A DNA stretch of 64,000 nt from a phage, in the sequence record OZ346151.1. The stretch is one strand, 5' to 3'. Shown piece after piece: positions 59,837 through 60,120 of the stretch (positions are counted from its first letter, which is position 1; every line of letters begins with the position of its first letter). Made by a program: the position numbers and the translations under genes. A model generated the notes under the pieces. The model made no database searches and was not told where the DNA came from. It was given only the letters and a program-made list of their open reading frames with translations.

Positions 59837-60120
59837 ATGGGCAGTGTCGGCCCTTCATTGGCACTCGCCTACGAGGGGGCGAGATGCCGGGCCTCCTTGG
59901 CGCACACAATAACAGAAGTTCATACATGCAGGTCTGTTAACATGTGTGGGAGCGAAGCGATAGCGCAGGCCAAAGGCCGAGCACTGATGTGGACCACCGA
60001 CGAAAGCTTGCCAGCGCCGTAAGGAGTCGGTTGAGAGTCTCCCGCGCGAGCTTGGATGAAGTTTATGTGTGGAAACTGACAAGAAGGCCCCTAAATCGCT
60101 CCACAGCTATATAAACTATA
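59837..60120. other. GC-rich structured island, candidate non-coding RNA or regulatory element
   Basis: Local GC well above surroundings; hairpins such as CTCGCC-TACGAGGG-GGCGAG; only short overlapping ORFs on both strands without RBS. Confidence 0.35.

Follow-up and report, generated by a model that had tools for sequence, protein, structure and literature searches.

A constrained non-coding hairpin array adjoins an origin-like cassette in rV5-like phages and is shared in part with capsid-encoding Escherichia coli plasmids

The subject of this work is a G+C-rich island at positions 59837–60120 of a 64,000-nt stretch of phage DNA (sequence record OZ346151.1, one strand; the whole stretch is called the window hereafter), situated between an AT-rich tract and the gene of a 192-amino acid (aa) protein. 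The island is a ∼290-bp non-coding array of hairpin-forming inverted repeats, and it is constrained at the nucleotide level although it does not encode protein. Upstream of it lie repeats and the AT-rich tract, which together form an iteron-type origin-like cassette, the main context that a preliminary description of the island, made from the window alone, had missed. Sequence comparison further indicates that parts of the island recur in a family of 13-kb E. coli plasmids with capsid genes. Our leading, still tentative, reading, which could well prove wrong, is that the island is a cis-acting hairpin module that flanks an origin and works as a folded single strand, that is, as a priming or loading signal resembling the single-strand initiation (ssi) signals of plasmids.

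Composition, limits and distribution of the island

The island has 54.9% G+C against a window mean of 42.7% (standard deviation 0.032 for 284-nt segments), a value matched by only 0.04% of the 284-nt segments, the maximum of 0.556 being that of the segment starting at 59839. As the richest 284-nt stretch in 64 kb, abutting a tract of 20% G+C directly upstream (59707–59836), it is the sharp compositional island of ∼280 bp that had been described. Homology with a divergent phage and a plasmid starts at ∼59843–59846, which sets the left limit, and the right limit lies at ∼60130, the coordinates first given being accurate to within 10 nt. The 801 nt around the island match 119 phage records at 90–100% identity, all of the genus Vequintavirus, to which this similarity assigns the window (an rV5-like E. 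coli myovirus). One copy of the island is found at the same place in 119/119 of these database genomes and no second copy occurs in the window; a repeated or mobile element within the phage was rejected for these reasons. The preliminary description had offered a non-coding RNA or a recent acquisition as explanations. What stands of this is a structured, non-coding segment shared with plasmids, whereas its presence in all 119 genomes speaks against a recent arrival within this phage group and action as an RNA is not supported, as set out below.

Coding potential and constraint

Open reading frames (ORFs) in the island are short and overlapping (61, 56, 75 and 30 aa), and no Shine-Dalgarno sequence is seen ahead of their start codons. 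Diversity, given throughout as nucleotide diversity in an alignment of 16 genomes, shows a third-position excess in the flanking genes (0.063 and 0.100 at position 3 versus 0.010–0.034 at positions 1 and 2), whereas both + strand ORFs of the island exhibit equal diversity at the three codon positions. The ratio of non-synonymous to synonymous polymorphism (pN/pS) is 0.93 for the 56-aa ORF (59944–60114; ORF 78 in rV5) and 1.10 within its conserved core, versus 0.12 for the adjacent 192-aa gene. Indels among the relatives comprise deletions of 18 nt and 3 nt, −1/+1 indels and a 1-nt difference in a G-run by which the 61-aa ORF is shifted; the C-terminus of the 56-aa ORF is truncated in two divergent metagenomic rV5-like sequences (L019 and L040). 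Because codon periodicity is absent, indels shift the frame and pN/pS is near 1, the island is non-coding, in agreement with the earlier remark that it holds only short overlapping ORFs without ribosome-binding sites. Protein coding was rejected on these three grounds. Constraint is nevertheless evident in the core at 59944–60037, where diversity is 0.016 against 0.06–0.10 at the third codon positions of the flanking genes, and where the nominally ‘synonymous’ pS is 0.017 against 0.142 in the neighbouring 192-aa gene; the remainder (60038–60120) is near neutral at 0.087.

Translation of 59944–60114 into a small arginine-rich protein is highly improbable. The frame is open in most relatives, with an extended form in L019 and L040, the 56-aa ORF is annotated in some genome records and AAGGAG stands 4 nt upstream of an in-frame TTG at 60032. 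Set against these points are the pN/pS values and the missing third-position excess, a GTG start without a ribosome-binding site, the C-terminal truncation in L019 and L040, and the indels (−1 and +1) of phage Alma (L002) within this ORF. In addition, compensatory changes in the stems described below lead to radical amino acid replacements, and a 24-nt loop barely changes, synonymous sites included.

Hairpins of the island

Compared with shuffled sequences, the island folds with z −2.0 (+ strand) and −1.2 (− strand) as RNA, and with z −1.5 and −1.4 as DNA. As the island thus beats shuffles only modestly, support for structure rests on comparison and not on energy. Hairpin 1 (59843–59897, + strand), at the left edge of the element, is a 15-bp hairpin over 59849–59893 that joins GGCCC (59849–53) to GGGCC (59889–93), GGCA (59860–63) to TGCC (59885–88) and CTCGCC (59864–69) to GGCGAG (59878–83) around the loop TACGAGGG. 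All pairs (15/15) are intact in six distinct sequences, two of them being doubly changed, from G-C to U-A, in plasmid CP020521, and sliding the 3′ partners lowers pairing to 36–48%. The CTCGCC/GGCGAG stem noticed in the preliminary description is thus real, nested in a larger hairpin with compensated pairs. At 59875–59879 the window has five G where 17/18 aligned relatives have four, a difference that shifts the 61-aa ORF (59837–60022); either a sequencing error in the homopolymer or a true polymorphism in the loop of hairpin 1 may lie behind it.

The core hairpin (59987–60050, + strand) is composed of ATGTGGACC, the arm ACCGAC (59996–60001), the 24-nt loop GAAAGCTTGCCAGCGCCGTAAGGA (60002–25), the arm GTCGGT (60026–31) and TGAGAGTCTCCCGCGCGAG. 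Its 6-bp stem is 100% paired across 11 distinct sequences, including plasmids in which GCTGCC/GGCAGC replaces it with three pairs doubly changed, and two phages with one A-U to G-U change; pairing as good is obtained in only 1/500 shuffles, and slid partners are 0–50% paired. The loop, GAAAGCTTGCCAGCGCCG(T/G)AAGGA, is the same in the phages and in the type-A plasmids save for the T/G position, which varies among the phages too, and is kept despite ∼15% phage–plasmid divergence around it. All 10 stem differences between phage and plasmid (10/10, in five pairs) are compensatory and none is uncompensated, in what is essentially one evolutionary comparison (phage versus plasmid). On this aligned evidence at least two hairpins, hairpin 1 and the core hairpin, are structurally supported by covariation. 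A helix between GGAC (59991–94) and GTCT (60037–40) was dropped, being broken in 5/11 distinct sequences.

The other parts of the island are less clear-cut. Hairpin 2 (59903–59946, + strand; CACACAATAACAG ... CTGTTAACATGTGTG) is imperfect and variable, with 18 nt missing in rV5 and Murica; one of its pairs is A-U, C-G and U-A in three lineages and the same position is mismatched in L005, L007, L008 and L030, so that comparison lends it weak support. The following segment (59943–59986, + strand; TGTGTGG-GAGCGAAGCGATAGCGCAGGCCAAAGGCCGAGCAC) is nearly invariant, lies inside the low-diversity core and holds both GCGAAGC (59952–58) and GGCC-AAA-GGCC (59968–78). d(GCGAAGC) is an unusually stable DNA mini-hairpin, and GCGAAGC is present in the phage and in plasmid CP134895. 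GGCC-AAA-GGCC had also been proposed as a stem, and its sequence is indeed present, but it never varies, which makes the comparison uninformative on its pairing, and RNAalifold preferentially pairs each GGCC with a distant partner. Beyond the core, the variable 3′ domain (60050–60130, + strand) forms in this phage a long imperfect hairpin (60050–60072 with 60101–60126) with GCCCCTAAATCGC in its loop (60087–99), and ends in CAGGTAATGCAATCGCAC (60122–41), which is inverted in the plasmids. RNAalifold proposes a 21-bp helix in this domain, the long helix being absent from L019 and L040; polymorphisms of the domain (C/U opposite G, G/A opposite U) keep pairing on the + strand only. It also proposes a long-range helix (59842–52 with 59977–88) whose end pair is U-A 12 times, C-G three times and U-G three times. 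Variation among the phages by themselves is too scarce to decide how the remainder folds.

The stems read in alignments and folds are nearly all perfect Watson–Crick helices with 3-nt loops (GAA, TAC, CAT, TCC, AAA), and several GC-rich palindromes have no spacer at all; the style of these hairpins looks more like that of DNA inverted repeats than that of a typical structured RNA. Two candidate motifs were rejected: TGTGTGG as a phage-wide regulatory motif (28 copies versus 9.4 expected, but most are coding, as Val-Trp codons) and CCCTAAATSGC as a repeated phage promoter (a single occurrence in the window).

The upstream cassette and its exchange

The cassette upstream of the island begins with the gene of a 116-aa winged-helix protein (59197–59547, + strand), a likely replication initiator by its match to phrog_12838 ‘replication initiation protein’ (E 5e-80); matches to phrog_8102 and phrog_428 are weaker, those to Pfam HTH_36 and DUF6945 lie near the cut-offs, and some RefSeq records name the product replication initiation protein. 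Four 21-bp direct repeats, or iterons, follow (59621–59706; consensus ACTGTCCGTGATACGGACACT, each with an internal palindrome; Tandem Repeats Finder period 21, 4.0 copies), with a diversity of 0.016 in the 16 genomes and with single repeats deleted in three relatives. The AT-rich tract (59707–59836), which holds nested inverted repeats and two GATC sites and has a diversity of 0.017, is a candidate DNA-unwinding element. The layout of an iteron-type theta origin (initiator gene, ∼20-bp tandem repeats and adjacent AT-rich tract) is therefore present, and judged by this layout the cassette is a likely replication origin.

In L019 and L040 the 116-aa protein is replaced by a 143-aa initiator-like protein, which in L019 matches phrog_8102, and L019 has other repeats (ATCTGATRCA) and another AT-rich tract. 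The swap is seen at 1960–2770 of L019 and 513–2238 of L040, the initiator, iterons and AT-rich tract all being exchanged for unrelated ones. Homology between L019 and the window restarts exactly at GTCGGCCC (59846) and continues through the island, the leader at 60137–60208 and the 192-aa gene. As the cassette differs while the island is kept, the island is a unit apart from the initiator/iteron cassette, and these alignments provide evidence for a cassette exchange at the putative origin. L040 carries an additional KilA-N/ANT gene upstream.

Capsid-encoding plasmids that share the island

Outside Vequintavirus the island matches only circular 13.2–13.7-kb E. coli plasmids and two metagenome contigs (plasmid-family sequences L016 (NZ_CP020521.1), L017, L020, L024, L032–L035 and L041–L043). 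The plasmids occur in 7/5,426 complete E. coli genomes, never in a chromosome, and one record is a 39.6-kb head-to-tail trimer. The shared pieces are 59843–59897 (89% identity over 55 nt in one plasmid, CP020521) and 59987–60054 (84–85% identity in seven plasmids), along with the motif CCCTAAAT(C/G)GC and a 20-mer that is inverted in the plasmids. In every plasmid the shared element falls within the sole 2.2–2.4-kb non-coding region, in the order plasmid-specific variable 22–23-bp iterons, short AT-rich stretch, hairpin array and rep operon promoters; four or more distinct iteron sets occur in the family. The plasmid array is made of short perfect hairpins punctuated by TGTGTGG(G), their number and identity varying by plasmid, and folds with z −6.1 (DNA) and −4.9 (RNA) relative to shuffles. 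Four plasmids (CP134895, AP045055, JBUCKS010000006 and CP074841) contain a type-B core, GTCCGGAT, an 18-nt loop and ATCCGGAC, and the GAGTCTCCCGCGCG segment varies too; CCCTTCGGG in CP043822 and CCCGAAGGG in CP134895 are one hairpin motif in both orientations. From these comparisons, hairpin modules are exchanged at the plasmid locus, and the island, parts of which are common to the plasmid family, has a history of horizontal transfer. It stands in an origin-like context in three settings (the window, L019/L040 and the plasmids) and beside three kinds of iteron cassette; occurring in two phage lineages with different cassettes and in a plasmid family with at least four iteron sets, the hairpin module behaves in sequence terms as portable.

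The plasmids encode major capsid, Dit-like, neck and 706-aa tape-measure proteins, an O-like winged-helix Rep (phrog_428 and 391) and several small proteins of unknown kind; none of the plasmid proteins is annotated as, or recognisable as, a terminase, portal protein, helicase or primase. Among phage proteins, the tape-measure protein is matched best by its Vequintavirus counterparts (25% identity, E 5e-12), and the capsid protein is distantly similar to those of 140–150-kb myoviruses. At the DNA level, a search of the phage collection with the structural block (2900–10600) returned nothing, and comparison of the entire plasmid with the 64-kb window adds to the island only a single weak match. 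The capsid, neck, Dit and tape-measure proteins have no counterpart in the window, and a search of GTDB genomes and IMG/VR with the capsid protein yielded nothing. By their gene content the 13-kb plasmids look like plasmid-borne phage satellites or reduced phages, so far undescribed. The further step, that they are a new kind of satellite, kept as a plasmid, that parasitises virulent rV5-like myoviruses with capsid and tape-measure genes of its own, and that the island is a shared cis handle by which the helper’s replisome or packaging machinery is captured, retained on both sides through an arms race and repeated recombination, is speculative and on balance unlikely.

With such satellites in mind, the island might be a helper-recognition site, at which proteins of the helper would act in cis on either genome, most simply a pac site read by the helper terminase in headful packaging. 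A satellite without a terminase would need the helper’s pac site, and the plasmids encode structural proteins with a tape-measure protein closest to Vequintavirus, but no recognised terminase or portal; the island is the sole phage–plasmid match among the DNA compared, and the trimeric record points the same way. rV5 has a circularly permuted genome, from which a pac site is expected (PMC3606486). The island nevertheless consists of compensated hairpins in a region of DNA metabolism (DNA polymerase, ribonucleotide reductases and DNA ligase are among the large ORFs of the window), none of the six window ORFs of at least 380 aa is a terminase, the phage-like core is missing from four plasmids of the family, and the starts of GenBank records are scattered, with no preferred end at the island. 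The pac and cos sites known to us are recognised as duplex DNA and usually lie at or near terminase genes. We consider a helper-recognition or packaging site quite unlikely.

The island might also have no function of its own, as self-propagating palindromic DNA or a recombination scar at a hotspot of phage–plasmid exchange, conserved by linkage or gene conversion. The wide variation in module number and identity among the plasmids would fit, as would the near-neutral 3′ third of the island (diversity 0.087) and a phage fold that barely beats shuffles, and template switching can keep palindromes perfect without selection. Such neutrality is hard to square with a core diversity 6–8 times below that of synonymous sites of the adjacent gene, with a 24-nt loop that has one variable position across the phage–plasmid divergence while the stem changed at six, and with an island that is present in 119/119 genomes and survived the swap of the neighbouring cassette. 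We regard a functionless island as improbable.

Transcription and the possibility of an RNA

A promoter at 59133 (+ strand) precedes the initiator-like gene, the island and the 192-aa gene. No sigma-70-like promoter is found at 59162–60571, in a scan that does not cover phage-specific promoters, and no terminator-like site in 59100–61800. An independent small-RNA gene would have its own promoter and terminator bounding the conserved structure, and the island has neither.

A structured + strand RNA is possible, though we doubt it: either a stable non-coding RNA cut from the early transcript that runs from the 59133 promoter into the 192-aa gene, or a leader acting in cis on the downstream operon and tRNA cluster, through their processing, stability, antitermination or translation. 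In its favour, the + strand transcription unit around the island has no terminator, and the consensus fold is somewhat more stable on the + than on the − strand (−81.1 versus −76.0 kcal/mol; 3′ domain −14.0 versus −7.1). On the + strand alone, C/U opposite G and G/A opposite U keep the pairs. A change from A-U to G-U is accommodated by the core stem of two phages, and the core loop ends in the Shine-Dalgarno-like UAAGGA-G, with a CUCC complement a few bases on. Some plasmid modules have a boxA-like CGCTCTTT beside TGTGTGGG; we take these to resemble boxA and boxC of rrn leaders. The RNA reading is weakened by the lack of any Rfam match in phage or plasmids and by the missing promoter and terminator. 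The strong promoters closest to the plasmid array are downstream of it and face the other way, the gene before the array ends in a strong terminator, and the only upstream + strand promoter is a 9-of-12 match. The supported hairpins nearly lack G-U pairs and 3-nt loops dominate, both unusual for functional RNAs, and one hairpin motif occurs in both orientations (CP043822, CP134895). L019 and L040 do not preserve the long, G-U-containing 3′ helix, and no such leader precedes a 50%-identical homologue of the 192-aa gene in another phage.

Searches of databases and literature

A blastn search (word size 11) of two collections, of 50,697 phage and 72,556 plasmid records with such G4-type phages and ssi-bearing plasmids as are among them, gave no similarity outside Vequintavirus and the 13-kb plasmids. 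No chromosomal match was found in the 5,426 E. coli genomes, and a host origin of the island was rejected on this ground. The core sequence retrieved from IMG/VR (by 18-mer), metagenomes and GTDB only rV5-like phages, two further plasmid contigs and chance matches to coding DNA; the three GTDB matches, uninspected, are in metagenome-assembled genomes of unrelated phyla. An Rfam scan of 59500–61700, which had been suggested at the outset, with all 4227 families (tRNA, group I introns, C4, ROOL and GOLLD among them) gave only noise at E ≤10, the best match, to rli43, scoring 22.5 bits where the gathering score is 100; the plasmids matched no family either, and ARAGORN found no tRNA or transfer-messenger RNA (tmRNA) in the island. 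A tRNA, a tmRNA or any Rfam family was rejected accordingly, as the preliminary description had held for a tRNA and a group I intron. The literature searched contained nothing on an rV5 origin, its iterons, a non-coding RNA there or the plasmid family, and no description of the island element was found in that literature or in Rfam.

Neighbouring genes

The leader of the 192-aa gene (60137–60208, + strand) contains a 12-bp hairpin (60147–58 with 60177–88) and the ribosome-binding site GAGGAGG, and hardly varies, divergent L019 and L040 included; this leader is possibly a regulatory element in its own right. The hairpin stops 8 nt ahead of the ribosome-binding site, and the leader has a boxA-like AGCTCGTTACAA. 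The 192-aa protein is confined to Vequintavirus, bar the 50%-identical homologue (L039 5001–5564), which is encoded beside a DNA ligase gene in an unrelated phage contig where the intergenic gap is 60 nt and no island is present. On the other side, genes for an RNA ligase, a polynucleotide kinase and a metallophosphoesterase (57141–59149) flank a divergent promoter region; they adjoin the origin-like cassette, lie 3 kb away from the tRNA cluster and may be an RNA or tRNA repair module.

Seven tRNA genes are clustered 2 kb downstream of the island. A 99-nt tRNA-like gene at 62554–62652 is given a four-base anticodon (atcc) by ARAGORN and scores only 35.5 bits with the Rfam tRNA model; its equivalent in phage Gotham is annotated as tRNA-Lys(TTT), and an insertion, an intron or a frameshift-suppressor-like tRNA may be involved. 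A second G+C-rich intergenic stretch (61366–61640, 51% G+C) separates a small gene from the promoter ahead of the tRNA cluster; this stretch is conserved at 93–100% in relatives and absent from the 13-kb plasmids. Eighteen of the 119 phage records (GenBank MG0656xx) are named ‘Campylobacter phage’ (host C. jejuni). Over 59500–60300 they are ∼95–99% identical to E. coli rV5-like phages, and they are probably mislabelled or contaminant genomes.

Proposed role

The order of initiator gene, iterons, AT-rich unwinding tract and hairpin array would make the island the conserved flank of an iteron-type origin. The initiator would open the AT-rich tract and unwinding would reach the island, whose + strand could then fold into hairpins, with loops and linkers read by a factor independent of the initiator’s specificity; the core hairpin’s 24-nt loop, the GAGTCTCCCGCGCG segment and the TGTGTGG linkers are candidates for what is read. 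The factor might be a component of the primosome, such as a primase or a helicase loader, supplied by the host or, in the case of the T7-gp4-like primase-helicase, by the phage, and it would start or organise DNA synthesis in the manner of ssi signals beside plasmid origins. A T7-gp4-like primase-helicase has been described in rV5 (PMC3606486). Three elements of this proposal are inferred, namely the activity of the upstream cassette as an origin, the action of the island in the form of single-stranded DNA and not of RNA, and a role in priming or loading. In favour of the proposal, the island is non-coding yet constrained, has an origin-like context, compensated stems and DNA-like hairpins, has no transcript boundaries of its own, and lies in a DNA-metabolism region without a terminase among the ORFs of at least 380 aa. 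A comparable assembly exists in pHW126-like enterobacterial plasmids, where an ssi-like palindrome and a conserved region accompany four iterons and a MarR-like winged-helix Rep; pIGMS31 can replicate without its ssi, although loss of the ssi leads to plasmid multimers (10.1101/2022.12.05.519187).

Several observations weigh against an ssi-like module. A skew analysis of rV5 in search of an origin found only switches of transcription direction (PMC3606486). The blastn search revealed no similarity to such G4-type phages or ssi-bearing plasmids as the collections contain, and type-B plasmids do without the phage-like core, so the 24-nt loop is not needed for plasmid maintenance. Expression of the 192-aa gene from the 59133 promoter would entail transcription of the island in the phage, and in the 3′ helix the polymorphisms are such that G-U pairs persist on the + strand. 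The margin of the phage fold over shuffles is small (z −1.5 to −2.0), and double G-C to T-A changes in inverted repeats can come from template switching without functional selection. Three further motif matches were not counted as evidence: a DnaA box (best match 8/9 at TGTGGAAAC, 60068–76), T7-type primase sites (GTGTC at the left edge, with GGGTC as its positional counterpart in L019, in numbers within chance) and rrn-like boxA and boxC motifs.

Should the proposal hold, the island would be a portable origin component as a priming or loading signal; were it an RNA, it would be a new family without an Rfam counterpart. No replication origin has been defined for rV5-like phages (PMC3606486), and the locus, with a swappable cassette and a conserved hairpin module, is a concrete candidate in a group that is widely used in E. 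coli phage cocktails. The shared module is also the first sequence-level link of the capsid-encoding plasmids to a phage group and an entry point to the satellite question.

Comparison with known systems

Among stable structured phage RNAs, rnaC and rnaD of T4 lie near tRNA genes, and ROOL and GOLLD are large and ornate. The island resembles rnaC and rnaD as a structured non-coding segment of a large myovirus, a couple of kb from a tRNA cluster, but it lacks an Rfam match and transcript boundaries, its hairpins are DNA-like, and it also occurs in plasmids without annotated tRNA genes. P4 and P2 share mainly cos. The phage–plasmid relation recalls the cos or pac sites common to P4 and P2, or to phage-inducible chromosomal islands (PICI) and their helpers, in that the island is the sole DNA common to phages and plasmids among that compared and the plasmids have structural genes and no recognisable terminase; it differs in its compensated hairpins, its position in a DNA-metabolism region and the lack of the phage-like form in four plasmids. 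The intergenic region of filamentous (Ff) phages, used in phagemids, is a few hundred nt of consecutive hairpins with replication and packaging signals, by which a helper phage handles a small plasmid. The island likewise presents consecutive hairpins over a few hundred nt, but Ff phages are single-stranded DNA phages with rolling-circle replication, whereas both partners here are double-stranded with putative iteron-type origins, share no sequence similarity with Ff and have no HUH nickase.

The ssi signals (G4-type primase sites, PriA primosome sites, ssiA and ssiB of RSF1010, and the pHW126-type palindrome) are, like the island, non-coding hairpin-forming segments, of ∼60–300 nt; they lie beside an iteron/AT-rich origin, a position that the island would share if the upstream cassette is an origin. 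They are orientation-dependent and function whatever the specificity of the initiator. No sequence similarity to them emerged from blastn, a result that refers to collections and not to direct comparison with a named ssi sequence; the island is also longer and modular, with a variable number of hairpins and TGTGTGG punctuation, and its strictly conserved 24-nt loop has no known counterpart. One feature of ssi signals, stable hairpins in one strand of a non-coding segment, is seen in two island hairpins (100% paired, five compensated pairs), and the layout of the island recalls the RSF1010 arrangement of iterons, AT-rich tract and hairpins.

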